The notes below the pieces were generated by a model. That model saw only the letters and a list, made by a program, of their open reading frames with translations. It was not told the DNA's origin and searched no databases. A stretch of DNA of 64,000 bases from positions 817,560 through 881,559 of the forward strand of contig OZ244982.1 of assembly GCA_965223115.1 (NCBI GenBank), written 5' to 3'. Below, in pieces: positions 1-21,466 of this stretch (position 1 is the first letter of the stretch; the number at the start of each line of letters is the position of its first letter). The translations under genes were made by a program, and so were the position numbers. Source of the stretch: Gammaproteobacteria bacterium (GTDB lineage: Bacteria > Pseudomonadota > Gammaproteobacteria > UBA4575).

Positions 1-616
1 GATTTGTGCAAAGAGCTGTCCTAAAGCCAATATAACCAGGATTTGCTTTCATTAAGGTGGGTATGTCATCTATAGCTAAAGAGCCAGCAAGGCCTGTAAG
101 TAAATCATTTTGTTTGGCACGGTTAATGAAATACTCAAGTTGTATGATATTTTTATGCTTAAGTAAGCCACCAGAACCTTTGCGAGCTGTGTCTAACATG
201 ACCCCTTTTAGACGTGCACTTTTGGCAATGTTAATTGCATTATCAATATCAAAACCCATATCAGCAAAAAACACAGCAATGATTGCAATGCCTTTATTAG
301 AACAATGGATTAGTTGGGGCAAACAATTTTCTATGTGGCGTTCGCTGAACATACCAACTTTCACGTAGTCGACTCCTGTTTCAGCCGTCTGCATGACTTT
401 ATCTTCTATAGCAGCGACGTCAGCAGGCAAATCCCCTACCGTGGCGCTGATGGCACATTTTTCCCACAATTCATCAACTACATAATGGATAACATTTAAT
501 GGAACGGCTCCCAAGGCACCATGGTTAGGTTCTTTCAAATCAATGATGTCTGCACCACCTTGATATGCGATGTTGGATTCTTGAAGGTTGCGTACGCTAG
601 CGAGCATTCCTGTCAT
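1..616 (-). CDS. MfnB-like TIM-barrel protein (DUF556; (5-formylfuran-3-yl)methyl phosphate synthase family), methanofuran biosynthesis. The C-terminal part continues left of the window.
   Basis: Reverse-strand translation from the ATG at 616-614 reads MTGMLASVRNLQESNIAYQGGADIIDLKEPNHGALGAVPL..., matching the conserved N-terminus of the archaeal/methylotroph MfnB family. The start overlaps the stop of the upstream gene (ATGA). The plus-strand ORFs listed at 57-706 are antisense artefacts. Confidence 0.5.
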   Translation of the reverse strand, partial: MTGMLASVRNLQESNIAYQGGADIIDLKEPNHGALGAVPLNVIHYVVDELWEKCAISATVGDLPADVAAIEDKVMQTAETGVDYVKVGMFSERHIENCLPQLIHCSNKGIAIIAVFFADMGFDIDNAINIAKSARLKGVMLDTARKGSGGLLKHKNIIQLEYFINRAKQNDLLTGLAGSLAIDDIPTLMKANPGYIGFRTALCTN

Positions 617-1185
617 AGCTGTTCATCCTTTTGCATGAATGTATCTACTTTTTCCATTAACCATCCCCATGCTTCTTGTTCTCGCCAGCCAGATGTTTTT
701 TCATAGCCTATACGTAGATATTCGATTTCTTGGAGTATTTTGTCTTGTGGCAACATATGTAGACGACTGACCAAAATCGCAAGTTCAAGCACTGCAAACT
801 GTGCGCGATTATACCCATGAAAGGGTGCATGTGTGACTTCATTTGCAATTTTGCATAAGAATTTTGGGCGAACTTCATCCTCTACTTTATTAATTACCTC
901 TAACTCTGTGTGGGCTAAGCAATTTTCTAAGCGCATACCATCAATAATATCAGTTGGACATGTTGGCCAAACTAGATTTCCAGTTAAACAACCTGCATAT
1001 ACACGTACATCATCAGTATAATTCAAAGTTGCAGTCCCATCTCGCTCTACATTATCTAATGTAGCAGAGGGTTTGAAAGGAAGGATAATTAAGTACTCTT
1101 CATCTTCATGTATACCCATGGGTGCTATGTGTACAGTTTTATCCTCCTGTACTGTCGTGACGATGCATTCGCGTATAAATGGCAT
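613..1185 (-). CDS. DUF447-family protein, typically encoded in H4MPT/methanofuran cofactor gene clusters
   Basis: 190-aa ORF translationally coupled to the DHPS-like gene upstream and the MfnB-like gene downstream. Length and composition fit DUF447 (flavin-reductase-like fold). Family assignment is from memory only. Confidence 0.4.
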   Translation of the reverse strand: MPFIRECIVTTVQEDKTVHIAPMGIHEDEEYLIILPFKPSATLDNVERDGTATLNYTDDVRVYAGCLTGNLVWPTCPTDIIDGMRLENCLAHTELEVINKVEDEVRPKFLCKIANEVTHAPFHGYNRAQFAVLELAILVSRLHMLPQDKILQEIEYLRIGYEKTSGWREQEAWGWLMEKVDTFMQKDEQL

Positions 1186-1195
1186 GTCAAATCCC

Positions 1196-2611
1196 TTATT
1201 TTTTCTTGCTTGCTTTTTTGCGGTCTTTGCGTGTGTGCATAGTATTGCCAGCTTCTTTAAATTGTGTCATGTCCTGTGCTTCTTTTTTGGTTGCCACACC
1301 CCAGCTGAGTTCTTCGTCCTGTTGATAACGTTTTCCCAATTGCCAAGCAATTTGAGCACGAGCATGTTCTACGCCTAGGTAAAATGCATGACCGCCATCA
1401 TCTTCTACGTTTAAGTTGGGATAAACTTCATATGGATCCGTAGTAGTGTATATGCCGTCTCTGTTATAAGTGTGAATGCCTTCTTCGCTCACCTGTATAC
1501 GGAAGTTTGAATCTTTAATTTGTGCAGCAAACTCATTAATTTCTTCTACTGTATAAGGGAATGGCTTGCGTTCATGTAAAGCCATTAAGTTATTGTCATA
1601 GCCTTTGGGTGGAATATTATCGATTCTAGATGCATACATGATGCGACGAGCAAGATCGGCTTCGCGTACTGCACAACGACAATGTTCACTGACCTCTGTT
1701 GCTAAGAGATATTGGATTTCCAGTTCCGAAATTATGCCTAGTAATAAAGCATTGGTACCCGAAGTATCTGCATGAGTCAGTTCTGTTAAATTACCAACGC
1801 CCATCATCATTTGAATATCAGGATAACGGTTGCGTAAATTTCGATAACGTACAATAGACTCAGTAAATCCAAAATGGATAGGGTCTAGAATAGAATCAGC
1901 AATAAACTCTCTTCCTTGCTTTAATAATTTGTCGATAGCCCGATAAAGAGAACGTACATCTGCTGGTGTATTGCCAATAAGAATCGGTGTGGAGGCTACT
2001 TCTTGTGTTACCCACAGTGATTTTTCGTTTAAGCTAAGTAAATAGTCTGCCCCAGCTAGACCGCCCACTATGAGATCTTCAGGGGTAAGTGAATCGACGC
2101 TTATTATAAAATTTTCAGCCTTAAGCGCCTGTACGGCTTCTTCCAGATGAGGGAAAGGTGTACTGGGCAGGCAACCTAGATCAATAACATTGGCTCCATC
2201 TTCTTTATAAGTAAAAGCACGTTTTATAATGTCCTCAATAGACATATTTGGTGCATCGACAATCTCAGCAAATATTTGTACGTCGTACTTGCTCAGATCA
2301 GTTTTTCTGTTTGTTTGACCAAAATAAGCCGGTAAATCTTTTAATTCTTCCGGTCCACGTTCAACTGGTATTCCAACTGACTTAGAGAGTACTTCAATAT
2401 CGCCTCTGCAGCGCCCTGGGATTACAATTCGATTAGCTTTACCTGGGTTGGTTAAACGTTTTTCAATGAGTTGTGTTGTCATTAATGCTGCAACACTGAC
2501 GCCAAGCTGTAGAACGCTATACGTAAATGCAGTTGGTTGCATAGATTCCAGCACGCGATGCAAACTTTTTTCTGCAAGTTTGCCAGTTAAAAAGAGAATA
2601 TGCTCAGGCAT
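1196..2611 (-). CDS. Dihydropteroate-synthase-like pterin-binding protein (H4MPT-pathway DHPS paralog with an N-terminal extension)
   Basis: 471 aa. The C-terminal half has the DHPS/pterin-binding TIM-barrel pattern (…VIDLGCLPSTPFP…, …GVGNLTELTHADTSGTNALL…). Operonic with the DUF447 and MfnB-like genes. Confidence 0.5.
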   Translation of the reverse strand: MPEHILFLTGKLAEKSLHRVLESMQPTAFTYSVLQLGVSVAALMTTQLIEKRLTNPGKANRIVIPGRCRGDIEVLSKSVGIPVERGPEELKDLPAYFGQTNRKTDLSKYDVQIFAEIVDAPNMSIEDIIKRAFTYKEDGANVIDLGCLPSTPFPHLEEAVQALKAENFIISVDSLTPEDLIVGGLAGADYLLSLNEKSLWVTQEVASTPILIGNTPADVRSLYRAIDKLLKQGREFIADSILDPIHFGFTESIVRYRNLRNRYPDIQMMMGVGNLTELTHADTSGTNALLLGIISELEIQYLLATEVSEHCRCAVREADLARRIMYASRIDNIPPKGYDNNLMALHERKPFPYTVEEINEFAAQIKDSNFRIQVSEEGIHTYNRDGIYTTTDPYEVYPNLNVEDDGGHAFYLGVEHARAQIAWQLGKRYQQDEELSWGVATKKEAQDMTQFKEAGNTMHTRKDRKKASKKK

Positions 2612-4579: not shown

Positions 4580-4651
4580 ATTAATTTGAATTTTACTTTA
4601 CTATACTCGCGCACTATGTGCTAAAGAGAAATCAAGTAGCCTAAGATCGAT

Positions 4652-7261: not shown

Positions 7262-7361
7262 ATAATATTAAGTGAAAATTGCTACTGTACTAATTTATTG
7301 TCTCTTAATTCTTGAAGTTAGCATTACTAGTTCAGCATTTGCTAGTTGTGAAAAAAATAGA

Positions 7362-8156
7362 ATAAAACTTCAAGTTCTAAGTTCTGGGGGGTCCTGAATT
7401 AAGTGATTAACGTGCATCAACATCTTATTTAAATTAGATAGATGGTCGAGCTGCGGTACAGATAGACACAGGTACGAGGAGCAGCTTGAATTTCGAAAAG
7501 TCCGGGGCAGATATTATAAGATATTAAAGCAATTTTATTTACCCATCTACACGTAGATCATAGCCAATATTTACCTGCTTATATAAAAGGTTCTTTTTTT
7601 AGTTCTAGAAATAATAATTTGTACATTTATGGCCCGGATGGTAATGATTTAATGCCATTGACTTCTAGTTTCGTAGAAAGTTTGTTTGGTACTTCTGGAG
7701 CATATAAGTATTTAAATAGTTATTTAAATGAAAATCAAATAAGTGATTATAAAATTTTAGTTTGAAGATGTAAGTTTACAATGATATAAAACTCATACTT
7801 TTAAAGTTGGTGATATCTTTACTATTGCTTCTATAGCAGTTCATCATGGTCCTATTGCGGCCATTGCATGGAGAGTGAACATATTAGGATGTTCGATAAC
7901 ATTCTCTGGAGATATGTGTAATCACAGTCAATCTTTAACCACTTTAGCAAAAGGAAGTGATATCTTGGTCGCACATAATGCAATTCCTGAGAATGCAACA
8001 GGTGTAGTACGTAATTTACATACGCCTCCATCTGAAATTGGTAAAATTGCGAATGAAGCAGGTGTAAAAAAGTTAATTTTATCTCACCGAATGCAGAGAA
8101 CATTAAGTAAAAAAGAAGAAACTAAAGAGATTATCCAAGAAAAATATAATGGTTAA
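7362..8156 (+). pseudogene. Degraded metallo-beta-lactamase-fold hydrolase gene (several frameshifts and stops, start codon apparently lost)
   Basis: Three different frames carry consecutive pieces of one MBL-fold protein: IKLQVLSSGGS* (7362-7397, ATA where ATG is expected), …FTHLHVDHSQYLPAYIKGSFF… (HxHxDH motif, about 7540-7760), and …ITAIAVHHGPIAAIAWRVNILGCSITFSGDM…LILSHRM… (7830-8156). At least three in-frame stops. A G6 homopolymer sits at 7386-7391. Confidence 0.6.
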
Positions 8157-8213
8157 GTGAATTTTGCAAATGATTTAGATAGTTTTATTTCTAGCCTTCG
8201 ATATAATAAAAAG

Positions 8214-8237
8214 GTAGCGAAGCATTTGCTTCGCTAC
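8214..8237 (-). terminator. Rho-independent terminator for the 8259-9281 gene
   Basis: Perfect 11-bp stem gtagcgaagca/tgcttcgctac with a short loop. On the minus strand it is followed by a T-rich run (ctttttattatat). Confidence 0.6.
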
Positions 8238-8258
8238 TAAACTCGAGTATTATATTTC

Positions 8259-9281
8259 TCAGTTAGTTGTAAACTCGATTAACTCGACGCGGTCTCCTGT
8301 GTTTAAATCAATCTCTACTATCAAGCCAACCCCAGGCGCATAATATTTGTTTTCGTTAGCTTCTGAATCTAAAGGTGTGAAATCGCGTGTAATTAAGCAG
8401 TCTCCGTTACATGATGCAGCGGGAGAAGTTTCACTGCCATCTGTGGCTAAAATCTCAATAATGTCTTCGGCATCACCCCAAGCTACTTCTTGCCTAATGA
8501 TTTCTCCGATTTGAGGAACAGAAGGTAAGAGAATTCCAGCTTTTGCTCCGTCTCGGCCGGCTTTCCATGACCCATCAATATCGACTAATTCGGGATTTTC
8601 AGGATCATCGCCTTCAAAGCTTTCAAAGTTTTGCGAGATTTCGCCGCAATACCAAACATTTCCGTAAATGTCTTGAGCATACCAGTCATCCGTACTTTCT
8701 ACTAACTCCTCATCAACTTCGGCGATATCCCTGATTGTTACGCAGGTAACACCATCAATTAGTTTTGTTTCGTTAGTTACTATAACAGTTATTGTTTCGG
8801 TTTCTTCTTCACCTTCATCATCTATTGTAGTTCCTTCGTATACCCATTGATTACCCGTAACAAGCGGGAAATAAGGGTTAGGTGTTATACTTTTTCCTAT
8901 TTCTAAAGGATTTACAAAATTATCTGCGAAGTCTTCACCAAAGGGTGGGTCGTAGGGTTCTTGGCCTATGTCTCTACATAAACTTTTGCGTGCTCTAAAT
9001 ATTTCTTGACATTCTTTGGAGCTTTGACGTTGTTCTATCTTTGATTCACGTAAACAATTTGATTTTTCTTCATCATCACTTTCATTTAAACACGCTGCAA
9101 CATATTCAAGATAATTGTCTCTAACATCAAACTCACATGCAAATTTTAAAAATCTTGCAGTTTTTGCGCAGGTACGCTCATGGTTTTGGTTATGACTCGA
9201 AAATGATGTTGTAGGGAACACATATAAGAACCCAATTATACTTATTGAAATTACTGTAAAATTAAATCTAGACAACTTCAT
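8259..9281 (-). CDS. Secreted hypothetical protein, Cys-rich N-terminal region and very acidic body
   Basis: 340 aa. N-terminal signal peptide (MKLSRFNFTVISISIIGFLYVFPTTSFS), many Cys in the first 110 residues, long D/E-rich stretches. No recognised catalytic motif. Confidence 0.5.
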   Translation of the reverse strand: MKLSRFNFTVISISIIGFLYVFPTTSFSSHNQNHERTCAKTARFLKFACEFDVRDNYLEYVAACLNESDDEEKSNCLRESKIEQRQSSKECQEIFRARKSLCRDIGQEPYDPPFGEDFADNFVNPLEIGKSITPNPYFPLVTGNQWVYEGTTIDDEGEEETETITVIVTNETKLIDGVTCVTIRDIAEVDEELVESTDDWYAQDIYGNVWYCGEISQNFESFEGDDPENPELVDIDGSWKAGRDGAKAGILLPSVPQIGEIIRQEVAWGDAEDIIEILATDGSETSPAASCNGDCLITRDFTPLDSEANENKYYAPGVGLIVEIDLNTGDRVELIEFTTN

Positions 9282-9400
9282 GGCGATTCTCCTGTATGTT
9301 TTTTAGCTAAGCATTTGTTGCTTACTGTTAAACTTACAGAATGAACTTTACTAGAAGCTTATATATAGATTATCAAATGGTAATTTTTCTAAGTTGTAAT

Positions 9401-10806
9401 TTAAGCAGGTAATAAAATTGTGAATGTGCTGCCACTTCCATATTCACTTTTTATTTTTATGTCTCCTCCATGAGATCGAGCAATAGCCATAGCGTAGCTT
9501 AGCCCTAAACCATTTCCGTTACTGGATCTACTGCTATCACAACGGAAAAAACGTTCGAAAACCCGGTGCTGATCTTCTGGTAATATGCCATTTCCTTCAT
9601 CAATAATATGGATGTAAATATTTTTTGAATGATTTTCTAGTTTGATATGTACTTGACTATTTGGCTTTGTATATTTTAAAGCGTTATCTATTAAATTGGC
9701 CAACATTCGTTGTATGCTTTGTTTATTACCATTAAATTTGCATTTAGGTTTTATGTTAAAAGTAAGCTCAACATTTTTGTTTTCAGCTACAGGGTCAAAT
9801 AATTCACAGGCCTCTTCTATCAATCAGAAAGATCTATAATTTCTTTAATACGATTGGTGACACCCGCTTCAGCTTCTGCCACATCTAATGTGCTGTTTAC
9901 CATTTGAATAAGGCGGTCACATTCTTCTAGTGTATCTTCAGCTGCAACTTTGTAATTTTCACTTTGAGAATTATTAGACAAAGTATTTTCTGAGATAGCA
10001 CGAATTCTTGCTAATGGACTGCGTAAATCATGCGCAATATTGTCAATCATTTCGCGCATTTCGGTTATTAGGTTATTAATACGCTCAATCATTGCGTTAA
10101 ATGTATTTGCTAGAGTTTGAATTTCTTCTGGTTGTCTGGTAATTGATACACGACGGTTAAATTCTCCATTTCTAATATCGATAGCAGCTTTGTTGATCTC
10201 TTCTATACCTTTGATGCTCTGTTTGGCCATGAACCATCCAATTGTTGAGGCAATTGGTAAAGCAATCAAAAACATTGAAGCAAATACAATCAGAAGTAAT
10301 TCCATTATTTCTTCTTTTTCTTCAGTAGATTCTCCTATTTGCAGAATAGTATTAGAGCCAATTAATCCATAAACAATCCTTGTGTTTTCTTCTTGCATGG
10401 GGAATTTCATGGTTTCTAAATAGAGTTTAGAGTCATTTAATAAAACTTTGTTTAAGGTGCTCTGAATTGTGTGTATTCCTTTCCAATGAGATAGGTCTGA
10501 AGCATGGATCTGTTTACCGTTAGTAGTGAGAACGCGTAAAAATACTTCGCTAACATCACTAGTTTTTGCTTCACGGTCAATTTCTTTTTTAACAGCATAT
10601 ATTCCTTCGTTTTTAAAAAGTATAGAAAATTCTTCTATATCTTCTTCTAAATCCTCATCAATTCTATTATTTAATATAGTATTAATGGATAGATATAATG
10701 CCGAAAGTGAAATTGCTAAAAAGGTAACAAACAATATTGAATACCAGAGGGTGAGTCTGAAACTTAGAGTATTAGGAAATTTATTCATCATTGACTTTAA
10801 GAACAT
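9401..10806 (-). pseudogene. Sensor histidine kinase gene split by a -1 frameshift between the HisKA and HATPase_c domains
   Basis: ORF 10806-9820 carries two TM segments, a HAMP region and an H-box (…IAHDLRSPLARI…). ORF 9823-9401 carries the HATPase_c N, G1 and G2 boxes (…NLIDNALKYT…DEGNGI…GNGLGLSYA…). The two are contiguous but one nucleotide out of frame around 9815-9830 (…IDLSD* / LIEEACELF…). Confidence 0.65.
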
Positions 10807-11461
10807 AGCCTAGGCCACGAACGGTATGTATTAAAGGTGTGCTATATGTTTTATCTATTTTTTCTCTAAGTCTGCTAATTCTTGCTTCTACAACATTTGT
10901 TCCAGGGTCAAAATCGTAATTCCAAACTCTTTCCATTATCATTGTTTTTGACAAAACACGACCAGCATTTCTAACCAAATATTCTAATAGGGCAAATTCT
11001 TTTGGTTGTAGGTCAATCTTTTTATTCGCTCGTTTTGCAGTTCTAGAAAGTAAATCTAGAGATAAATCATTTATTGTTAATGTTGTTGGCTCTGAAATAT
11101 TACTTGCACGACGTAGAAGTGCTTCAATTCGAGCAAGTAACTCACTAAAAGAAAATGGTTTAGTTAGATAATCATCTCCACCATGTTGCAAACCATCAAT
11201 TCGGTCATCCACAGTGCGTTTTGCACTTAATATTATTATGGGAAGATTTATCCCTTTTTCTCGAACTCGACTTATAATAGATAAACCGTCTAGCTTAGGA
11301 AGCATCAAATCTATAATTGCAAGATCATAAATGTCTTGTATAACTAAGCTTAATCCTAATTGTCCGTCTGCTGCATGATCTATAGCAAAACCTGCCTCCT
11401 TAAGCCCTTTTATAATAAAGTCAGCTATTACCTGATCATCTTCAATGAGTAGTAATCTCAT
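10781..11461 (-). CDS. OmpR-family response regulator (receiver plus winged-helix DNA-binding domain)
   Basis: 226 aa. MRLLLIEDD…DLAIIDLMLPKLDG… receiver and a C-terminal OmpR/PhoB-type wHTH (…RVWNYDFDPGTNVVEARISRLREKI…). Overlaps the kinase start by 26 nt. Confidence 0.85.
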   Translation of the reverse strand: MRLLLIEDDQVIADFIIKGLKEAGFAIDHAADGQLGLSLVIQDIYDLAIIDLMLPKLDGLSIISRVREKGINLPIIILSAKRTVDDRIDGLQHGGDDYLTKPFSFSELLARIEALLRRASNISEPTTLTINDLSLDLLSRTAKRANKKIDLQPKEFALLEYLVRNAGRVLSKTMIMERVWNYDFDPGTNVVEARISRLREKIDKTYSTPLIHTVRGLGYVLKVNDE

Positions 11462-11694
11462 CTTTAATTTCTAGTAGATTTGAAGGATTTTATTACTTCA
11501 AGCATATATTCTTAATTTTAGTTTTATATTGCATTAACGTTTTAAATAAATATATGCCAAATCTAGCATGTGTATCTTTGTCATATTGCAAACAGTAATG
11601 CAATATTTTGAATTAAAACATTACCATATGGTGAACTAGAAGAAAGTTTTAATAAAAATGATCTATTTAGTTGGGTAATATAAGGTCTATATAA

Positions 11695-12837
11695 TTGACT
11701 TTTATGAACGCATATCCGAACTCTAGTATTTTAAAATATATTAATATCTTACTTGCATTATATTTTTTTATAGTTATGCAAGATGTATCAGCAAATGACC
11801 AAGGTCCTGCGGATATAAAGCTAGGTCCAAAAGATTTAACAGCAAGAATATATCGAAATCCTGAGGAACGTCGGGAAGCAGGATTGGGAACTAAACTAAC
11901 TGATAAGCTTAAATTTTCTGGATTACTAGAAATAGCAAAAGAATACAGTGAAGAAAACTTAGAGAATAGAGGAAAAAATAGAGTATATGCTGATATAACA
12001 TTTGCAGCACAGTTTGCGTTTGAGTATTCATTTGCCAAATGGATGAATACGGAGTTAATTTATGAGGTTGAGCATGACGGCAGAAATCAAACGGGTCAAT
12101 GGGATGAGGCATTTATTAGTTTAGATTTTGATGCATTAGGGATAGGCATAGAAGCAGGAAGAGTTTCTGCTCCATTTGGTGAATATTACAGTCATTTTGC
12201 TACAGGGCCATTATTGGAATTTGGTGAGACCATTCGTAATGGCTTGATTGTTGATTATGAGCTTTTGGCTGGATTAGATATAACAGGATTTATTATTGAT
12301 AGCGATGTGAAAAAAATGAATAAAGGCACTGACTATGACTGGGGGGCTGCTATTGAATATACATCTATAACAGAGGCCTTTCGTTTTGGTATAGGTTATC
12401 TATCAGACTTGGCAGAAAGTGATGAGCGTTTTTTGCAAGATGAAAATGATGAATATGAAAGACGTGTGTCAGCATGGAATGCTTATACATTAATAGGTTT
12501 TGAGGATTTTGAAATCACTGCTGAATATGTTCTAGCAAATAATAAGTTTAGAGAGTTTGATGATCAAGAAAATAAACCAAGTGCTTATAACCTTGAGTTA
12601 GCCTATTTTCCAGTACCTCAATTACAGGTGGCAGTAAGGCTGGAAGGTAGTGATGAATTCGCCGATAAGCCTGAACAACAATATGGCGTTTCAGTTAGTT
12701 GGTGTTTTGTTAATCGTCTAAGTATTACAACAGAATATTTATTTGCTAACTTTAAGAATAATTTTGCATTTGATGATGAGGATAATGAAATAAAAGATCG
12801 AGATATGATCGCAGCTGAGCTATCAATAGAATTTTAA
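11695..12837 (+). CDS. Putative outer-membrane beta-barrel (porin-like) protein
   Basis: 380 aa. Hydrophobic N-terminal signal-like segment, alternating amphipathic beta-strand pattern, C-terminal …ELSIEF with terminal Phe typical of OMPs. Divergently transcribed from the two-component system. Confidence 0.45.
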   Translation: MTFMNAYPNSSILKYINILLALYFFIVMQDVSANDQGPADIKLGPKDLTARIYRNPEERREAGLGTKLTDKLKFSGLLEIAKEYSEENLENRGKNRVYADITFAAQFAFEYSFAKWMNTELIYEVEHDGRNQTGQWDEAFISLDFDALGIGIEAGRVSAPFGEYYSHFATGPLLEFGETIRNGLIVDYELLAGLDITGFIIDSDVKKMNKGTDYDWGAAIEYTSITEAFRFGIGYLSDLAESDERFLQDENDEYERRVSAWNAYTLIGFEDFEITAEYVLANNKFREFDDQENKPSAYNLELAYFPVPQLQVAVRLEGSDEFADKPEQQYGVSVSWCFVNRLSITTEYLFANFKNNFAFDDEDNEIKDRDMIAAELSIEF

Positions 12838-12870
12838 TTTTATTTCTAAATTAGTAAATGTATAACCCAA

Positions 12871-13695
12871 CTAACCAATCCAAACAAGGAGTTCTCCTTG
12901 GCCGTCTACTGAAGTGTCACCCATGTAACGTTGTACACGTCTGCGCATTGGGTGTAGTAATCTAAACTTAGACTCATAACGCCTTAGCTCATGAAGTAGT
13001 AATGTTAGATAACCCAAGCTATGTCGACCACAGTCATGAAATCCTGATGCCATATCTTCTGGTTTGTGTGGAAATAGTAAAGTACCACGTCTCATACCAA
13101 CACCTACTTGTTTACCAATTGCCCCCATGTTGGTAATCGTTCCCGCTATCATTCTACTGGCACAATGATCACCGATATCCCCTACCACCATAATAGTTCC
13201 GCGTCGCATTAAGTCACCGGTAAAGTCACCAGTATTACCGTGTACGAGTATTGTGCCTCCTGACATGCCTTTTTTCTCACCTGTGATAGCACTGCCTGTA
13301 TAGTTATTGCTGTTACCAGATATTTCTAATAAGCCTTTAGACATCCCACAACCAGAGAAATCTTGTGTGTTTCCCTCTACCTTTATTGTGGCCCCATTTA
13401 ATTGTGCCCCTGCATAATGCCCACAATCACCGATTACTGATAGTTTTATATCGTTATTAAGTGCATAGCCAATATAGTCCATCTTGGAGTTCGCATTCTC
13501 CAATATATATTCATTACTAGAATTGCTTTTTGAAATATCAAATAACTCACCAACGGTGGTTTGTTGATTACCAATTAACAAATCTAGATTCTTGGTCTGT
13601 TCATCCGTTAGTGTTTGTTTTATAGCATCACTTAACCAACGCATATCTATGCGTTGTTGAACATTGCCTTTATATGTAACGGTTGTATGACTCAT
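12871..13695 (-). CDS. fhcC: Formyltransferase/hydrolase complex subunit C (FwdC-like, GXGXXG beta-helix repeats)
   Basis: 274 aa with repeated G-x-x-G-x-x-G segments (…GNTGDFTGDLMRRGTIMVVGDIGDHCASRMIAGTITN…) as in formylmethanofuran dehydrogenase subunit C. Last gene of a four-gene operon. Confidence 0.7.
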   Translation of the reverse strand: MSHTTVTYKGNVQQRIDMRWLSDAIKQTLTDEQTKNLDLLIGNQQTTVGELFDISKSNSSNEYILENANSKMDYIGYALNNDIKLSVIGDCGHYAGAQLNGATIKVEGNTQDFSGCGMSKGLLEISGNSNNYTGSAITGEKKGMSGGTILVHGNTGDFTGDLMRRGTIMVVGDIGDHCASRMIAGTITNMGAIGKQVGVGMRRGTLLFPHKPEDMASGFHDCGRHSLGYLTLLLHELRRYESKFRLLHPMRRRVQRYMGDTSVDGQGELLVWIG

Positions 13696-14587
13696 TCATT
13701 ATTTCTCTTAAATGGAAATGATGCTGGCCTAATTTACCACCGTAGTTACCCCCAGTAATTTTTTCAATGCCTTGTGCTTTGCCTAAATCACAAATAGCTT
13801 CGATGCCACGGTACATCGCTAAAACAACATCTTCTTTAGTTAGGCCGTCGATTACTATCTCCATTGCTGCTTCGATACTTTTGCCAAGTACATTGTCGGG
13901 TTCGCCTTTAAGTGTAGGGCAGAAAGGATGATTAGTAGAAGCATTCAGTTCCTTGTATTTTGAACCTACTTTGGAACCAGAACGAACTCCGCCCCCAGGG
14001 AATGGCAACACAATGTTTGGTAATACACTGATAGCATCAATTGCAGCTTCACAAGCAAGTAATGCCTGTGAAATATGTCGTGCTAATACTAAAATGTTTC
14101 CACCACCAATTGCACTTTGGTAGCCGGTAGATTCCTGACATAAAAATTCACCATCCATGACAGGAATGCGCCAGAAACGGTTACTACCAATCATTTTTGA
14201 TGATTGATAACCATCACCAAAATAGCGCAAATTTTTGCCTAAAGAAATTTGTTCATCTCCGTCCATGCCGGCAAATACTGCAGTAGTGGGGCAAGTGAGT
14301 ACACATTGTCCAACACGTACTTGTAATTGTTGCTCTAGTGTCTTGCGATCTGTAGAAAAAAGCAAAACAGATATTCCTGGTCTACCATCAGGAGTTTCGT
14401 GATTGCCAATAACTCTTTCAATGCCTGCTTCAACTTTACAACCAATTACAGAGGTTGCGAAACCGGTCATGGTTTCTGCGGCATGTCTTGCCCATTTATA
14501 ATTGATGGCGGTGATAATGATACGTGTAGCACGCATTGAAAATGCTTCTGAAAATGTATCTTCTATAAGAACGCCATTAATAATCAT
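13670..14587 (-). CDS. fhcD: Formylmethanofuran--tetrahydromethanopterin N-formyltransferase (Ftr / FhcD)
   Basis: 305 aa. N-terminus MIINGVLIEDTFSEAF… matches the Ftr signature (MEINGVxIEDTFAEAF). Overlaps fhcC by 26 nt. Confidence 0.8.
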   Translation of the reverse strand: MIINGVLIEDTFSEAFSMRATRIIITAINYKWARHAAETMTGFATSVIGCKVEAGIERVIGNHETPDGRPGISVLLFSTDRKTLEQQLQVRVGQCVLTCPTTAVFAGMDGDEQISLGKNLRYFGDGYQSSKMIGSNRFWRIPVMDGEFLCQESTGYQSAIGGGNILVLARHISQALLACEAAIDAISVLPNIVLPFPGGGVRSGSKVGSKYKELNASTNHPFCPTLKGEPDNVLGKSIEAAMEIVIDGLTKEDVVLAMYRGIEAICDLGKAQGIEKITGGNYGGKLGQHHFHLREIMNESYNRYI

Positions 14588-14591
14588 TGTA

Positions 14592-16250
14592 TTAATTTAG
14601 TTTGCATGGATGAATTTGAGTCTTACTACCAATGCATTCTTCCATTTCATCATTGCTGATTTTGAAATTATCAAATGCAATAGTTTGGTAGTCATCAAAA
14701 TATTTCTTTAAAGGTTTTTCGATAGCTCGATCAAACTCAGGTTTTACAACATGAGTTATACCTTGAACAGTTTTTATTACTGACCCATCTTTAACAATTT
14801 GCACACCATTTTTAAATACCATATAAGGCTTAGCAAACATCTGTTCTATATCATTTTGTTTGTGATAAACGACGATATTTGCGACTGCATTGTCACCTAG
14901 ATGGCCATGATCATTCAATCCTAAAATTTTAGCAGGGGCAGCACGTGTCATAATTGCAATTTCATATAGAGAATATTCGCGTTGCATGGAAGCCAAGTTA
15001 GACATCTTTTGTGCTTCAGGATGTATAATATTAAAAGCATCATTTCTAAACGAGCGATTCATTAATAATTTTATTAAATGAGGATAACTAGTAAAAGGGG
15101 CGCCGTTAGGGTGATCAGTAGTTAAAAAGATACGCCAGGGGTCATTTACTTGTAGGAAAATTTCTAAGCCGATGGCCCATTGCAAGGCATTAACAAAGCT
15201 TTTGTCACGGTACTTAAAGGGCATAACTCCACAACCTGCATCACATTCAATGTCCATAATAGTCCATTTCTTTGGGTGTGCATGGTCATGACCGAAGTAT
15301 TGCATCATGGTATCTCCAGATGTTGTCATGGTTTGACCAAACATAATTTGGCCAACATCTGCAGATACGTTGTTTTGTTTATTAATAGCTTCTGCAATCT
15401 CACATGCTGCGGAGGAGAATTTTCTATCGCCTTCTGCTCCATAGCTATGAAATTGAATATGGGTTAAATGAACAGGAAGGCCTTGTGCAGCAGACATGGT
15501 TGCAAGTGTTGATTCGAAGTTACCAGGAATACCTAAATTACTTGCATGAACGTGCAGTGGGTGTGGTACACCAAGATCATGTATGGCTTTACTTAAGGTG
15601 GTAATTATTTGTCGCGGTGTTACACCAATTGGGCCTGTTTCGTCAACATCAAGACGGCGTTGGTTATATTTAAATGCGTGGATTCCACCAGCATTAACTA
15701 CTTTTATTCCGATACATTGAGATGCGTCTAGTGTCCATGCTACGTAGTCATTAATCGCAGCTTGATTTGCACCTTGAGTTAGCATTCTCAACAAAAAGTC
15801 ATCATTGCCTAATAATGCGTAGCCCCCTTTGTCAATCATAGGAGTATCGGCCATTTCCATATGAGCTTGGCGAGCATTTACAGGTAATACAGCGGGCTCA
15901 AAGCATGTGGTATAGCCCATCTCGGCATAGCGATAACCTGTTGTATAAGTCGAAGGGGTAATGTGGCCACTTCCAGCACGGCATACATCTGTTTTATTAT
16001 CGATGTTGTTTTGGTGATCATCGAACATCATTGTGCGTGCAATATTTACTTTGCCGCCACCAATATGTGTATGCATATCGATTGCACCAGCCATGACAAT
16101 GCAATCATTAATATCTATTTCTTGGTCAATTTTTTTGTTTTCAGGTGCAGATAGGCTGATCTTGTCATCAACAATGTATATATCTTTTACTTGACCATCC
16201 ACTTCATGAACTGGGTCATATACCTTGCCGTTTGATAATTTAATAACCAT
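14592..16250 (-). CDS. fhcA: Formyltransferase/hydrolase complex subunit A (FwdA-like amidohydrolase)
   Basis: 552 aa. Metal-dependent amidohydrolase motifs (…AIDMHTHIGGGKVN…, …HVHASNLG…). Confidence 0.8.
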   Translation of the reverse strand: MVIKLSNGKVYDPVHEVDGQVKDIYIVDDKISLSAPENKKIDQEIDINDCIVMAGAIDMHTHIGGGKVNIARTMMFDDHQNNIDNKTDVCRAGSGHITPSTYTTGYRYAEMGYTTCFEPAVLPVNARQAHMEMADTPMIDKGGYALLGNDDFLLRMLTQGANQAAINDYVAWTLDASQCIGIKVVNAGGIHAFKYNQRRLDVDETGPIGVTPRQIITTLSKAIHDLGVPHPLHVHASNLGIPGNFESTLATMSAAQGLPVHLTHIQFHSYGAEGDRKFSSAACEIAEAINKQNNVSADVGQIMFGQTMTTSGDTMMQYFGHDHAHPKKWTIMDIECDAGCGVMPFKYRDKSFVNALQWAIGLEIFLQVNDPWRIFLTTDHPNGAPFTSYPHLIKLLMNRSFRNDAFNIIHPEAQKMSNLASMQREYSLYEIAIMTRAAPAKILGLNDHGHLGDNAVANIVVYHKQNDIEQMFAKPYMVFKNGVQIVKDGSVIKTVQGITHVVKPEFDRAIEKPLKKYFDDYQTIAFDNFKISNDEMEECIGSKTQIHPCKLN

Positions 16251-16258
16251 GATTGAGT

Positions 16259-17521
16259 TTAAAGGTTTTCTGTAAGTTGCTTGATGACTTCATTTGCTGC
16301 AGGAAGATCACTAGCACGTATGGCTTTTAAAGGTAAAGTGGCAACATTATCTGTGCGACACGCAAGTCCACGGTGATCTATACCTGGTACACCTGTAGGA
16401 ATGTAAACTTGAACATCTGAATTGCATTTCATGTTTGGATGCCCAATTACGATAGTAGGCACAGACGTTTCAGGGGGTAGGTCGCTGGAGTTATAAGTAG
16501 CTATCCATAGTAGTGCATCTGCTTCATTATTTTGTAGCATTGCCATTCCGTCGAATAAATTTGGATTATGGTTGGGTGCCCCATTCATAAATGCAATTGG
16601 TAAAGGTATGCCCATTTGCCATGTCGCAATTTGGTTGGCTGTAATTTCAGCTTTTGAACCACCTAATGTAAGTCCAACAACACGATTCTTTACCATGAGT
16701 CTTTTTATTAGTTGCGTAAGTGTCTGAATAGTTTGTTCTGCAGTTGCTTGGTTAAACTCCCCTGGGCTCCATAAAAAAGTTGTATATTGGCTGTTAGTTA
16801 TAATCTCGCATAATTGCAATAATGCTTGAATAGCATAAGTATTTTTATTAGAAATTTTATTAGGTGAAGCTATTATTCCATGGAGTTTTTGTATAATTGA
16901 TTCTAGAGTAGGTTCGTCAAAATTAAGAAATGTAATATCTTCGTACATAGATTGAATAGATTTGTCAGCATCATTTGCTACATCCAATACAAAAATATTT
17001 TTCTTTGTTGAGGTATCGCCATTCAATGACTGCGCTGGCGATAGTATTCGTTTATATAAGCGTGGGAAGTTTTCAAGTATTCCAGATCCAATTATTACAA
17101 CACAGTCTGCGCGATTACGGATTTCTGCTAAAGTTGTTTTTACTTCACCATGCCTTTGCATGACGGCATTATTAGTGCGCAATCTTGCGCCATTTGCATG
17201 ATCAATAACTCCGCCAATTTTTTCTGCTAATGCAATCGCATTTCTGCAGGTTTGCACATCCCCAATCAAACCGCTGATAAGAGGCTGTTTTGCTGAGGCT
17301 AAAATTTCACATGCCTTTTGTAGTGCATCTTTTTGAGTTGCAGTAGCACCCTTAACGAAAGGTGATGGGGCCTTGTTGTCTTCAAGTGAGGCGTCTTCAA
17401 AGTGGTGTTTACATTTTGCTGGCATTTCCGGATTCAGCTGTACAAAAAGATCATTTGTTTCAACCTCTAAATCGTCACAAAGTAAGCCACAATGTGTGCA
17501 TGTAACTGAATCAAATTGCAT
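16259..17521 (-). CDS. fhcB: Formyltransferase/hydrolase complex subunit B (FwdB-like, molybdopterin-oxidoreductase fold)
   Basis: 420 aa. N-terminal Cys cluster (MQFDSVTCTHCGLLCDDLEV) as in FwdB/FhcB. Confidence 0.75.
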   Translation of the reverse strand: MQFDSVTCTHCGLLCDDLEVETNDLFVQLNPEMPAKCKHHFEDASLEDNKAPSPFVKGATATQKDALQKACEILASAKQPLISGLIGDVQTCRNAIALAEKIGGVIDHANGARLRTNNAVMQRHGEVKTTLAEIRNRADCVVIIGSGILENFPRLYKRILSPAQSLNGDTSTKKNIFVLDVANDADKSIQSMYEDITFLNFDEPTLESIIQKLHGIIASPNKISNKNTYAIQALLQLCEIITNSQYTTFLWSPGEFNQATAEQTIQTLTQLIKRLMVKNRVVGLTLGGSKAEITANQIATWQMGIPLPIAFMNGAPNHNPNLFDGMAMLQNNEADALLWIATYNSSDLPPETSVPTIVIGHPNMKCNSDVQVYIPTGVPGIDHRGLACRTDNVATLPLKAIRASDLPAANEVIKQLTENL

Positions 17522-17592
17522 ATTAGTAGTTCAAGAATATTAATAAAAAGGGGCTATAAAGGATCATAACAAGATATCAAGAGGCTTGTAGC

Positions 17593-18639
17593 TTAATTTG
17601 TTTTGTTATCCAGTGAATAGGGCAAAGATTGCATTGAAATGTTTGCTCCTGATACTGAAGATAAATGTAAATCTCTATCATTTTGATTTGCTATGCGCAG
17701 TACGGCTAATGCAGAAGTAATTTCATCTGATATTTTTTCTGCTATAACAACTTTTCCCACTGGCTGGTTTTCATCTTTGGATGAAAAGATATTAATTCCA
17801 GGTTCAGGAACATTTGCAGTAATAATATTTATTCGATACATGCGACGATTAGGTTTACCTAGATAATGTGTGCGAGCAATTACCTCCTGTCCTGGATAAC
17901 ATCCTTTGCTAAAACTAACACCCTTAATAATTTCTAAGTTAGTCATTTGAGGAATGAAGGCTTCACTAGTATTTTCTGTAATTGTTGGTATACCGCTATA
18001 AATATCGTGTAAGTTCCACAACTTATTTGAAGCCACATCAAGTTTTTTGGCTAGTTCCCCCCAAATTGTAATCGCTTGTTTTGGTCTAGTTATACAAATT
18101 ACTCTTGAGTTTTCACTGGGGAGTCGAATTAAAGTTGTTTCATTATCTATTACGCAGTGATCAATTTTTTGAGGCATTGTTAAATCTATGCTACTTAGTA
18201 CTGATTCGGTGTTAGGTCCTGCTACTCCAAAAATAACCAACTCATCAGATGCGTCTATTAACTCTACTTTTGCTATGAGTTTAAACATATTTAATTTATT
18301 TAGAGTTTTTTCAATTACATCTTTTGGTAAAATAAGATGATACCCATTTACTGTTTTATATATCCTAAAGATTGAGAGCATTCTGCCCTTGGGGTTGCAG
18401 TAACTGCTGAGTTGACTATTTTTAGAGTTGACTAGGTTTAAGTCATTGGTAAATTGTCCATGCAAAAAGTTTTGTGCATCTTCTCCACTTGCTTTGATTA
18501 GACCTAGATTAGATAGGTTGCATAAGTAAGTGTGGTCTAATGAATATACTTCATTATCTGCCTCACCTAGAGTAGGTGCTTGCACATTACGAATCACTGT
18601 ACCTTGATCCGTCAAAAATTTGTTCCAAGCCTCGTTCAT
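17593..18639 (-). CDS. ygfZ: Folate-binding protein YgfZ (GcvT-like, Fe-S cluster repair / tRNA modification)
   Basis: 348 aa with the C-terminal signature …SFSKGCYPGQEVIARTHYLGK… (KGCYxGQE motif). Confidence 0.75.
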   Translation of the reverse strand: MNEAWNKFLTDQGTVIRNVQAPTLGEADNEVYSLDHTYLCNLSNLGLIKASGEDAQNFLHGQFTNDLNLVNSKNSQLSSYCNPKGRMLSIFRIYKTVNGYHLILPKDVIEKTLNKLNMFKLIAKVELIDASDELVIFGVAGPNTESVLSSIDLTMPQKIDHCVIDNETTLIRLPSENSRVICITRPKQAITIWGELAKKLDVASNKLWNLHDIYSGIPTITENTSEAFIPQMTNLEIIKGVSFSKGCYPGQEVIARTHYLGKPNRRMYRINIITANVPEPGINIFSSKDENQPVGKVVIAEKISDEITSALAVLRIANQNDRDLHLSSVSGANISMQSLPYSLDNKTN

Positions 18640-18888
18640 ACTGTACTGATTAAATTTTGTTCAAACATGATGATTTTGCATAAAAAACCAAGCTCAAAGT
18701 ATCAATCTATCATAAAATTACATATTAAATTTCTTTAAGCACTTGTTATTGCTCACATTTCTTTAGAGATATGTTCAATATATCTGGTCAATCGGTTAGT
18801 ATTCAATGCAGAACTAAGCGTTTTTACTGCCTCTGCAGAATGGAAGTTATCAAAGAGGCATCAATAGTACATAGTCAAGAGGAGTTAC

Positions 18889-19281
18889 ATGGCTAATCTA
18901 AGTAGGCCATTATCACCACATTTGCAAATTTACAGATGGCCACTCACGATGGCTATTTCGATTCTACATCGAATGACTGGTGTTGCACTTGCCATAGGCG
19001 CAGTATTGATGGTGGTGATTTTTATATCAGTTGCGGCTGGGCCTGAATCATACGAAATAGTAAGAGAGTTACTTGCAAGTAAGATTGGTAAGGCATTTTT
19101 GTTTTTATGGACCGTTGCACTTTTCTTACATTTGTTTAATGGTATCCGTCATTTAGTTTGGGATGTAGGCTATGGTTTTGAAAAAGGCGCCACAACAAAA
19201 TCTGGAATATTAGTGTTACTGGCTACTATAGTATTGTCTGTAGCAGTTTGGGTGGCAGCCTATCTAAGCTGTAATGTATAA
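18889..19281 (+). CDS. sdhC: Succinate dehydrogenase cytochrome b556 subunit
   Basis: 130 aa, three TM helices, …RPLSPHLQIYRWPLTM… N-terminus typical of SdhC. First gene of sdhCDAB. Confidence 0.8.
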   Translation: MANLSRPLSPHLQIYRWPLTMAISILHRMTGVALAIGAVLMVVIFISVAAGPESYEIVRELLASKIGKAFLFLWTVALFLHLFNGIRHLVWDVGYGFEKGATTKSGILVLLATIVLSVAVWVAAYLSCNV

Positions 19282-19294
19282 ATAAGGATTAAGA

Positions 19295-19666
19295 ATGTCT
19301 TTACGAACACCATTATCGGAAGCAAAAGGACTTGGCTCTGCTAAAGAGGGTGCAGGGCACTGGTGGCTGCAAAGATTAACTGCAGTTGCTTTAATACCTT
19401 TAGCAATTTGGCTGGCGTTTTCAGTCGCTATGTTAGGCTCAGCAAGTCACGAAACTATTGTAGGCTGGTTACAATCACCTATTGTAGTAGTTTTGCTAAT
19501 CTTGTTCATTGTGGCTACGTTCTATCACGCCCAATTAGGTCTTCAAGTTATTATTGAAGATTATGTTGGGGGCTGGCTAAAGATTACATCTTTAATTGCA
19601 ATCAATTTTCTTTGCATTATTTTGGCTGTTGCCGGAATTATCGCCCTGTTAAAAATCTTTTTATAA
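19295..19666 (+). CDS. sdhD: Succinate dehydrogenase hydrophobic membrane anchor subunit
   Basis: 123 aa, three TM helices, positioned between sdhC and sdhA. Confidence 0.75.
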   Translation: MSLRTPLSEAKGLGSAKEGAGHWWLQRLTAVALIPLAIWLAFSVAMLGSASHETIVGWLQSPIVVVLLILFIVATFYHAQLGLQVIIEDYVGGWLKITSLIAINFLCIILAVAGIIALLKIFL

Positions 19667-19675
19667 AAAACTACC

Positions 19676-21466
19676 ATGAGCAAAGCATACACTCCAATTG
19701 AGCATGCCTATGATGTTGTAGTAGTAGGTGCAGGTGGCGCCGGCTTACGTGCAACATTGGGTATGGCCGTTAGCGGTCTATCTACTGCATGTATTACTAA
19801 AGTTTTTCCTACAAGAAGTCACACAGTGGCTGCACAAGGTGGCATGAGCGCTGCATTAGGTAATATGGGTGAAGATGATTGGCGTTGGCATATGTACGAT
19901 ACTGTTAAAGGATCAGATTGGTTAGGTGATCAAGACGCAATTGAATATATGTGTCGTGAAGCTATTCCTGCAGTAGTTGAGTTAGAGCACTATGGGGTTC
20001 CATTTTCGCGTACTGATGAGGGTAGGATCTATCAGCGTCCCTTCGGTGGTATGACTACACATTTTGGCGAAGGTATTGCCCAGCGAACATGTGCAGCGGC
20101 GGATCGAACAGGGCATGCCATTTTACATACTCTTTACCAGCAATCTTTAAAACATAATGCAGAATTTTTTATCGAGTATTTCGCAACTGATTTGTTAATG
20201 GATGATGATGGTACTTGTAAAGGTGTCATGGCGTGGGATCTCGCTACAGGTGAATTGCATATATATCGTGCACACATGGTGCTGCTTGCTACAGGTGGCT
20301 ATGGACGGACCTATTTCTCATGTACTTCTGCACATACCTGTACTGGTGATGGAAATGCTATGGTGTTACGTGCTGGCTTGCCTTTGCAGGATATGGAGTT
20401 TGTGCAATTCCATCCCACCGGTATCTATGGTGCAGGTTGCTTAATAACAGAAGGTGTGCGTGGGGAAGGGGGCTATTTAACAAATTCTGAAGGCGAGCGC
20501 TTTATGGAGCGCTATGCACCTAATGCGAAAGATTTAGCCTCACGTGATGTAGTCAGTCGTTCCATGACAGTTGAAATTAATGAAGGTCGTGGTATTGGGG
20601 AAGAAAAAGATCATATTCATTTGCATCTTGAGCATTTGGGTGCAGATCTAATTAACGAGAAGCTACCGGGTATTGCTGAATCGGCAAGAATATTCGCTGG
20701 TGTTGATGTCACCAAAGAGCCTATCCCTGTTATTCCGACTGTGCATTACAACATGGGGGGCATCCCAACAAATTTCCATGGTGAAGTGGTTACCTTGAGA
20801 GATGGTGATCCCGATACAGTAATTCCTGGTTTGATGGCAATTGGTGAAGCTGCGTGTGTATCTGTGCATGGTGCCAATCGATTGGGCTCTAATTCACTAT
20901 TAGATTTAATTGTGTTTGGTAGAGCAGCGGCATTACGAACAGCGGAACTGGTCAAACCTAAACAATCACATAGCGAATTAAAAAATGGAGCGATTGATCA
21001 AGCGTTGGATCGCTTTGATAAACTCCGTTATGCCAATGGCAGTATTTCTACTGCAGACTTACGTTTGGAAATGCAAAAGACTATGCAAAATCATGCTGCT
21101 GTGTTTAGAACAGGTGAGTCCATTGAGAAAGGTATGGCTAAACTCAGAGCATTATTTAGTCAGTTAGATGATATCAAAGTATCTGATCACTCTTTGATTT
21201 GGAACACTGATTTAGTTGAAACCATGGAGCTAACAAATTTGATGCCACAGGCTTTAGCGACAGCACAATCTGCGTTAAATCGCGAAGAAAGTCGTGGTGC
21301 ACAAGCACGCGATGATTTCCCAGAACGTGATGATGATAACTGGATGAAGCATTCTTTGGTTTCAGTTAGTGACAATGGTGATGTAAGCATTGATTATCGT
21401 CCTGTACACATGTACACACAAAGCGATGATGTTGAAGTGATTCCACCTAAACCTCGAGTTTATTAA
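19676..21466 (+). CDS. sdhA: Succinate dehydrogenase flavoprotein subunit
   Basis: 596 aa. FAD-binding [13 protein letters not shown], covalent-FAD His region …[10 protein letters not shown]…, C-terminal …[16 protein letters not shown]…. Confidence 0.95.

Follow-up and report, generated by a model that had tools for sequence, protein, structure and literature searches.

The fhcBADC operon

The contig OZ244982.1 of a gammaproteobacterial genome (assembly GCA_965223115.1) carries, within a 64-kb window (the whole stretch of 64,000 nt that was analyzed, positions 817,560 to 881,559 of the forward strand), four genes predicted to encode a formyltransferase/hydrolase complex (Fhc) of the type used by methylotrophs to release formate from formyl-tetrahydromethanopterin (formyl-H4MPT). 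The genes fhcB, fhcA, fhcD and fhcC (Table 1) are intact and co-oriented on the minus strand (17521-12871), with gaps of 8 nt between fhcB and fhcA and 4 nt between fhcA and fhcD, and with an overlap of 26 nt between fhcD and fhcC. A preliminary description of this DNA had claimed a complete, co-oriented and tightly packed or overlapping fhcB-A-D-C set, and the four open reading frames (ORFs) were found at the positions it gave. The order B-A-D-C is uniform in the gammaproteobacterial loci examined (44/44), and the characterized operon of Methylorubrum extorquens is likewise arranged fhcBADC (PMC6926001). The operon is flanked by ygfZ on one side and by a gene for an LbtU-like porin on the other.

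Profile searches of the four proteins, which the preliminary description had called for, uphold all four family assignments. The 305-aa FhcD, whose N-terminus reads MIINGVLIEDTFSEAF, had been taken for an Ftr-type protein; it matches both Ftr lobes (PF01913, FTR, 209 bits; PF02741, FTR_C, 189 bits) and the fhcD equivalog model TIGR03119 (418 bits, cut-off 293). FhcA is matched by TIGR03121 (728 bits, cut-off 393) and Amidohydro_3 (156 bits), and FhcC by TIGR03122 (208 bits, cut-off 131) and GXGXG (63 bits). FhcB is matched over its full length by TIGR03129, at a score below the cut-off that is weighed in the following section; its Pfam search returned no match, including none to molybdopterin domains.

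Two observations concern the DNA around and within the operon. The ygfZ gene ends 71 nt upstream of fhcB, and the gap is free of promoter- or terminator-like sites, such that read-through transcription of ygfZ-fhcBADC is possible; the sole promoter-like site on this strand between 17522 and 18888 lies upstream of ygfZ. The underlying scan (11400-19000) returned fewer promoter-like sites than shuffled sequence and was otherwise uninformative. A 95-aa ORF antisense to fhcA was considered and rejected as a gene, as its apparent conservation in relatives simply mirrors that of fhcA.

Table 1. Positions of the features discussed, numbered from the first nucleotide of the window.
Feature	Coordinates	Strand	Length	Assignment and remarks
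fhcB	16259..17521	minus	420 aa	FwdB-like subunit, predicted scaffold
fhcA	14592..16250	minus	552 aa	predicted formyl-methylofuran hydrolase; amidohydrolase with binuclear zinc site
fhcD	13670..14587	minus	305 aa	predicted formylmethanofuran:H4MPT formyltransferase
fhcC	12871..13695	minus	274 aa	GXGXG beta-helix subunit, predicted scaffold
DUF6513 + dihydropteroate synthase (DHPS)-like protein	1196..2611	minus	471 aa	PF20123 139 bits; TIGR00284 193 bits, below cut-off
DUF447 protein	613..1185	minus	190 aa	DUF447_N + DUF447_C; typical of the archaeal-like one-carbon (C1) clusters of methylotrophs
MfnB-like 4-(hydroxymethyl)-2-furancarboxaldehyde phosphate (4-HFC-P) synthase	1..616	minus		PF04476 199.5 bits; bacterial subfamily NF002576 232 bits
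prfB	4650-5747	plus		programmed +1 frameshift site
lysS-fhcC interval	7262-12870			variable spacer
Metallo-beta-lactamase (MBL)-fold gene	7272-8156	plus		broken; probably a pseudogene
Heavy-metal-type sensor histidine kinase	9401-10806	minus		split into ORFs 9820-10806 and 9401-9823
ORF antisense to fhcA	15180-15467	plus	95 aa	rejected as a gene
ygfZ	17593-18639	minus		upstream of fhcB
Promoter-like site	18806-18777	minus		upstream of ygfZ
ABC transporter pair	61731-63184	plus		probably a generic ABC-2 exporter

Hydrolase or dehydrogenase type

Subunits related to FhcA, FhcB and FhcC also occur in the molybdenum or tungsten formylmethanofuran dehydrogenases (Fmd/Fwd), and the two types are distinguished here by several comparisons. 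Against solved structures, FhcA scores 427 bits with the M. extorquens Fhc (PDB 6S6Y_A) versus 395 bits with the best archaeal chain, FhcC 125 versus 96 bits and FhcD 325 (6S6Y_D) versus 276 bits, the archaeal chain being Ftr in the last case. FhcC aligns to 6S6Y_C over residues 5-271, while its FwdC alignments end at about residue 223, as judged at the level of sequence; this additional region corresponds to the one that is described as specific to Fhc and as the docking platform for FhcD (PMC6926001). The 'exception' models for tungsten Fwd remain far under their cut-offs (FwdA NF042911, 479 versus 950; FwdC NF042910, 123 versus 340). All six zinc ligands are retained in FhcA (H60, H62, K183, H235, H264 and D379), as mapped onto His57/59, Lys176, His229/258 and Asp377 of the M. 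extorquens enzyme, with the ligand list taken from PMC6926001.

The catalytic residues of the dehydrogenase are lost from FhcB. The tungsten ligand Cys118 of FwdB is replaced by Arg113, His119 by Leu114 and Arg288 by Gly287. Cys118 and His119 are found in none of the 44 gammaproteobacterial FhcB homologues, and the Cys118 position is hypervariable among them; a deltaproteobacterial homologue (L050) keeps the C-H-R residues and thus provides the positive control for the dehydrogenase type. FhcB extends no further than FwdB at its end, the tightly packed genes leave no room for a FwdD-like fourth domain, and neither the ORF list nor the profile search revealed a gene for FwdD, FwdE, FwdF or FwdG at the fhc locus. 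Thus, with FhcA, FhcC and FhcD best matched by Fhc, the catalytic residues of FhcB lost and FwdD absent, the complex is predicted to be an Fhc-type hydrolase and not a dehydrogenase. The earlier interpretation of the locus as the formate-releasing Fhc complex of methylotrophs is, on these sequence comparisons, supported as the hydrolase type. The fhcBADC genes are proposed, with a probability of about 0.9, to form a functional operon for a formyltransferase/hydrolase complex that catalyzes the last step of H4MPT-linked formaldehyde oxidation.

Several observations weigh against this proposal. FhcB scores 239 bits with TIGR03129 (E 6e-71), under the curated cut-off of 328. It aligns over its full length with the archaeal FwdB (5T5I_B) at 99.7 bits, higher than the 77.6 bits with the M. 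extorquens FhcB, and FwdB stays slightly ahead after removal of the first 54 residues (85 versus 78 bits). FhcB also keeps an iron-sulfur motif that is absent from the only characterized Fhc, so that its role as a scaffold alone is extrapolated. Beyond the operon, the 64-kb window includes no fae, mtdB, mch, formate dehydrogenase (FDH) or primary C1-oxidizing gene. A query with the clade Fae (from the related locus L057) did not reveal the Fae of the source genome in the part of the relevant cluster that was covered (40 of 122 members), a result that is not evidence of absence. Finally, the host clade is probably at or near the GTDB order UBA4575, and the link runs through a relative (L033, genus UBA1858) with 80% FhcD identity. 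With regard to FhcB, the preliminary description had asked whether the subunits flanking FhcD would score better as a true Mo/W dehydrogenase with an intact molybdopterin-binding FwdB: FhcA and FhcC, like FhcD, do not, and FhcB does by score, but its pterin site is not intact and the residues that define the site are lost.

The four-cysteine motif of FhcB

FhcB has an N-terminal [4Fe-4S]-type motif of four cysteine residues (C8, C11, C15 and C37). The motif is conserved in all 44 gammaproteobacterial FhcB homologues, including those with FhcB identities as low as ~26-30%. By contrast, the M. extorquens FhcB is without the entire N-terminal [4Fe-4S] domain (PMC6926001). FhcB was searched against 1.84 billion cluster representatives, and the best 150 (P0473-P0622) were classified: 129 have all four cysteines and are without Cys118/His119, 15 are without the N-terminal domain (several of these are fragments) and 6 have a partial motif. 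Judged by these sequences, bacterial FhcB proteins commonly bear the motif and have no pterin site, and the M. extorquens type is in the minority. Thus, loss of the Fe-S domain describes the M. extorquens protein and not the family, the FhcB of the window is not peculiar, and the general statement that the evolution of Fhc involved the loss of the iron-sulfur cluster is to be qualified.

That the putative [4Fe-4S] cluster has a function beyond stability of the fold is considered improbable. If it did, the cluster could, for instance, sense redox state or oxygen and thereby gate the production of formate, or it could offer a docking site to an electron-transfer partner, and such a role could not have been revealed by the domain-deleted M. 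extorquens model enzyme.

Sequence constraint and inheritance

The genome closest to the source (L002/L055, contig CBDCUI010000009.1) was used for the comparison of identities. FhcD (95%) and FhcA (87%) are followed by FhcC (75%) and FhcB (61%); the housekeeping proteins have identities of 95% (SdhA), 93% (PrfB), 85% (LysS) and 76% (RecJ). Synonymous divergence is saturated (dS >1 or undefined); thus, the rates of nonsynonymous change (dN) alone are compared and no dN/dS is given. The dN values are 0.034 for FhcD, 0.080 for FhcA, 0.179 for FhcC and 0.292 for FhcB, with 0.035 for SdhA and 0.313 for YgfZ. The catalytic subunits FhcD and FhcA are under the same degree of constraint as SdhA. The rate of change in the scaffold subunits FhcB and FhcC is four to nine times that in FhcD, with FhcB the fastest, yet both are intact.

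The GC content at third codon positions (GC3) of the fhc genes (0.26-0.31) is that of the housekeeping genes (0.25-0.33), and the synteny between sdhCDAB and ygfZ-fhcBADC is common to L002 and L003, although it is absent from deeper relatives. Horizontal acquisition was considered and rejected, as GC3, dN relative to housekeeping genes and the synteny of the flanks all match the host genome. The agreement of composition, divergence and synteny indicates that fhcBADC is a vertically inherited trait of the core chromosome, in support of the earlier view that the C1 module is 'wired into' the core chromosome.

Cofactor genes and the dispersed C1 island

Three genes at the left end of the window (1-2611) had been described as MfnB-like, DUF447 and DHPS-like, and profile searches confirmed each of them (Table 1). 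The stop codon of the DUF447 gene overlaps the start of mfnB (ATGA). The C-terminal ~30 codons of mfnB are cut off by the window edge; a protein that is 100% identical (P0121) has 235 aa. The homologue of MfnB in M. extorquens is Orf22, and MfnB supplies the furan moiety of methylofuran (PMC8141765). The DUF6513/DHPS-like gene is presumed, from family membership and gene context, to function in the biosynthesis of the pterin H4MPT. The DHPS-like-DUF447-mfnB operon is conserved in three related loci (L003, L055 and L056). In the window it is followed by recJ, prfB and lysS, and 10.26 kb separate the DHPS-like gene from the end of fhcC, in line with the ~10 kb previously estimated.

The genes that would complete the pathway are found in relatives. 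In L057, which has 83% FhcD identity and is from the same contig region as L023, the whole C1 island is contiguous. A divergent module (GHMP-kinase-fold, mtdB, ATP-grasp, mch, RimK-like, CitG-like, fae and PTPS-like genes) lies opposite fhcBADC, and past fhcBADC there is an SBP56-SCO1-MauG operon followed by an NAD-linked FDH (14896-18479; 19999-20849). The SBP56-SCO1-MauG arrangement is that of the mtoX methanethiol-oxidase operon of Hyphomicrobium. The tblastn probes for Fae and Mch had no match in the window, and their hits in L057 agree with the Pfam annotation (PF08714 and PF02289). In L001 (90% FhcD identity), the SBP56-SCO1-MauG operon, fhcBADC and FDH are adjacent (4101-5561; 11770-16234), and the fae module has moved away. 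In both of these deeper relatives, redoxins are also linked, and the FDH comprises 51-kDa-like and molybdopterin subunits. The location of fhcBADC beside the SBP56-SCO1-MauG operon and FDH in the deeper relatives points to methanethiol or dimethyl sulfide (DMS) as a source of formaldehyde.

Relatives closer to the source have the modules further apart. A Fae protein (P0434) on the contig of a relative with 88% FhcD identity led to L058 and L059, in which the fae/mch/mtdB module is on the same contig as fhc at a distance of ~60 kb and includes additional cofactor genes (HisF-like orf17, PabB-like and AA-kinase/MfnE-like). In the nearest relatives, L055 and L056, the DHPS-like-DUF447-mfnB operon is followed by ~9-10 kb of unrelated genes and then by MMPL and AA-kinase genes, which in L058 border the end of the fae module. 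From this synteny, the fae module of the source genome probably lies ~10 kb or more past the left edge of the window. In L056, the MMPL transporter gene (17644-20153) is broken into several ORFs; it is intact in L058 and L055. Across the series of related genomes, one C1 island (mtoX, fae/mtdB/mch, fhc and FDH) comes apart step by step, and its pieces come to lie among housekeeping genes. The earlier proposal of a C1 module split into at least two loci by recJ-prfB-lysS is right as far as it goes and incomplete: the relatives have a third module with fae, mch, mtdB and further cofactor genes, and the spacing between modules varies.

The variation in spacing arises next to fhcC. Among close relatives, the stretch from lysS to fhcC is a hot spot for changes in gene content and measures ~0.27 kb in L056 and ~13 kb in L002/L055. 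The distance between fhc and the cofactor operon accordingly varies between 5 and 18 kb; measured from fhcC to the DHPS-like gene, it is 5.0 kb (L056), 6.5 kb (L003), 10.3 kb (the window) and ~18 kb (L002/L055). In the window, the interval includes a broken MBL-fold gene, a 340-aa hypothetical protein, a two-component system with a frameshifted kinase and the LbtU-like porin. A single frameshift at ~9823-9826 divides the gene of the sensor histidine kinase into two ORFs; its orthologue in L002 is one ORF, and the split gene is either a pseudogene or the product of an assembly indel. The MBL-fold gene has an HxHxDH motif and a signal-peptide-like start, is distributed over at least three frames and is probably a pseudogene.

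Host clade and predicted function

The close relatives are uncultured marine metagenome-assembled genomes (MAGs) labelled Gammaproteobacteria or 'Thiotrichales', as judged from sample names and two cited papers. UBA1858, the genus of the relative that links the clade to UBA4575, belongs to the GTDB order/family UBA4575 and has a closed genome of 2.40 Mb with 38.95% GC (PMC10793256). Francis et al. (2021, PMC8371827) used genome annotation and metaproteomes to infer that the UBA4575 engage in dissimilatory methylotrophy; their SBP56 methanethiol oxidase was detected in bloom metaproteomes, and no assimilatory C1 pathway was identified (PMC8371827). One relative is exceptional in its label: a MAG named 'uncultured Mycobacterium sp.' (L015, CAXMUG010000020.1) has fhcBADC with an FhcD that is 85% identical to that of the clade, and the contig is probably mis-binned or mislabelled.

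By analogy, the activity, cofactor and physiological substrate of the Fhc complex can be outlined as follows. Formaldehyde, for which methanethiol/DMS or other methylated compounds are the most plausible source, would bind H4MPT and be oxidized to formyl-H4MPT. The enzymes for these steps, Fae, MtdB and Mch, would be encoded elsewhere in the source genome. The subsequent steps are modelled on the M. extorquens enzyme (PMC6926001). FhcD would move the formyl group from N5-formyl-H4MPT onto the amine of methylofuran, and this tightly bound arm would then swing the group to the binuclear zinc center of FhcA for hydrolysis to formate, with FhcB and FhcC acting as scaffolds. The formate would pass on to an NAD-linked FDH. 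The genes at 1-2611 may supply parts of the cofactors, with MfnB providing the furan ring and the DHPS-like protein a pterin step. The operon in this clade most likely serves in the oxidation of formaldehyde from methylated compounds such as methanethiol or DMS.

Alternative explanations differ in how well they accommodate these observations. The best-surviving, although unlikely, is that the fhc operon is functional but limited to housekeeping detoxification of formaldehyde in an ordinary heterotroph, with no energy gained from methylated substrates. The fhc genes of the source genome and its nearest relatives do lie among housekeeping genes with no C1-oxidation gene nearby, and the lack of an identified assimilatory pathway in UBA4575 would fit. 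However, slightly deeper relatives link fhcBADC to the mtoX-SCO1-mauG operon and an NAD-linked FDH, the SBP56 proteins of UBA4575 are present in bloom metaproteomes (PMC8371827), and FhcD and FhcA are constrained like SdhA, all of which argue for a role in the oxidation of methylated compounds.

A second explanation, in which the cluster is what is left of a decaying, fragmented C1 island and the source genome no longer has a complete pathway, is judged very unlikely. It draws on the breakage of the ancestral island (as in L057) into separate modules in the sub-clade, on the frameshifted histidine kinase and broken MBL-fold gene in the spacer beside fhcC and on the source-genome Fae not being among the cluster members listed. 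Yet the four fhc genes and three cofactor genes are intact with low dN, the same split layout is kept in several relatives with fae, mch and mtdB on the same contig, the MMPL and AA-kinase genes found beside the fae module of L058 stand at the ends of L055 and L056, 9-10 kb past mfnB, and the Fae look-up covered 40 of 122 cluster members only. The weakest explanation, a true Mo or W formylmethanofuran dehydrogenase with an attached Ftr that interconverts CO2 and formyl-methanofuran with electrons passing through the [4Fe-4S] cluster of FhcB, accounts for the FwdB-leaning score and the CxxCxxxC...C motif of FhcB but is close to negligible in view of the Arg/Leu/Gly replacements of Cys118/His119/Arg288 at a site where the Cys118 position varies freely in relatives, an FhcB without Pfam molybdopterin or molybdopterin-binding domains, the absence of genes for an FwdD fourth domain, a polyferredoxin or any further Fwd subunit, the failure of the FwdA/FwdC exception models, the proximity of FhcA, FhcC and FhcD to Fhc and the contrast with L050, which by keeping C-H-R exemplifies the real dehydrogenase type.

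Other genes of the window

The window has a GC content of 37.2%, and its other genes are of housekeeping type (sdhCDAB, iscR, mdh, zapE, nagZ, hpt, mfd, ccm, lolCD, comEC, msbA, lpxK and kdsB). The neighborhood had been characterized as ordinary housekeeping (sdh, ccm, lol, lpx), and sdhCDAB, ccm, lolCD, msbA, lpxK and kdsB were found. Scans of the window with Rfam and for tRNA genes returned no match. The prfB gene has a programmed +1 frameshift site (CTTTGAC at 4721), which is why the ORF list includes a 282-aa piece only. An ABC transporter pair near the right end is best matched by GldA (289 bits, cut-off 403) and GldF (193 bits, cut-off 289); a gliding-motility naming is unexpected for a gammaproteobacterium, and the pair is probably a generic ABC-2 exporter.

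Comparison with known systems

The fhcBADC finding is real, was correctly read at the outset and is a routine example of a well-characterized system. It adds one more intact Fhc operon to a lineage that, if UBA4575, is already proposed to be methylotrophic, and homologues are so named in public records. The closest characterized counterpart is the FhcABCD complex of M. extorquens (PDB 6S6Y; Hemmann et al. 2019, PMC6926001), which has the same four subunits encoded in the same order. Its A, C and D chains are the best PDB matches, the zinc ligands of FhcA are all conserved, the sequence similarity of FhcC runs through the C-terminal region described as Fhc-specific and FwdD is absent. The M. 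extorquens FhcB is also without equivalents of Cys118/His119/Arg288, with Ser62 at the position of Arg113 here. The differences lie in FhcB, in the host and in the arrangement of the genes. The FhcB of the window has 420 aa with a four-Cys N-terminal domain, whereas the M. extorquens chain has 361 residues and is without this domain, and the two align in two short stretches (78 bits) with low identity. The host, an uncultured marine gammaproteobacterium of low GC content, differs from the alphaproteobacterium M. extorquens, and the remaining 'archaeal-like' C1 genes are dispersed here, not contiguous.

The FwdABCDFG complex of Methanothermobacter wolfeii (PDB 5T5I) is more distant. FwdA, FwdB and FwdC are homologous over their full length to FhcA, FhcB and FhcC, and the FhcB of the window keeps the CxxCxxxC...C motif found at the N-terminus of FwdB. 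Unlike in Fwd, the catalytic Cys118/His119/Arg288 are lost here, genes for FwdD, FwdF and FwdG are absent, the Ftr subunit is encoded inside the operon and the FwdA/FwdC exception scores are far below their cut-offs.

The most similar in gene content and genome are the C1 islands of UBA4575 and neighboring clades (PMC8371827). Relatives with 80-95% FhcD identity share fhcBADC, the DHPS-like-DUF447-mfnB operon and part of the flanks, and UBA4575-type relatives are similar in GC content (~37-39%) and genome size (~2.4-2.8 Mb). By contrast to the UBA4575-type islands, the source genome and its nearest relatives have fhcBADC parted from the mtoX operon, FDH and the fae/mch/mtdB module, and the fhcBADC of the source genome now resides between ygfZ-sdh and a variable spacer that adjoins lysS-prfB-recJ.

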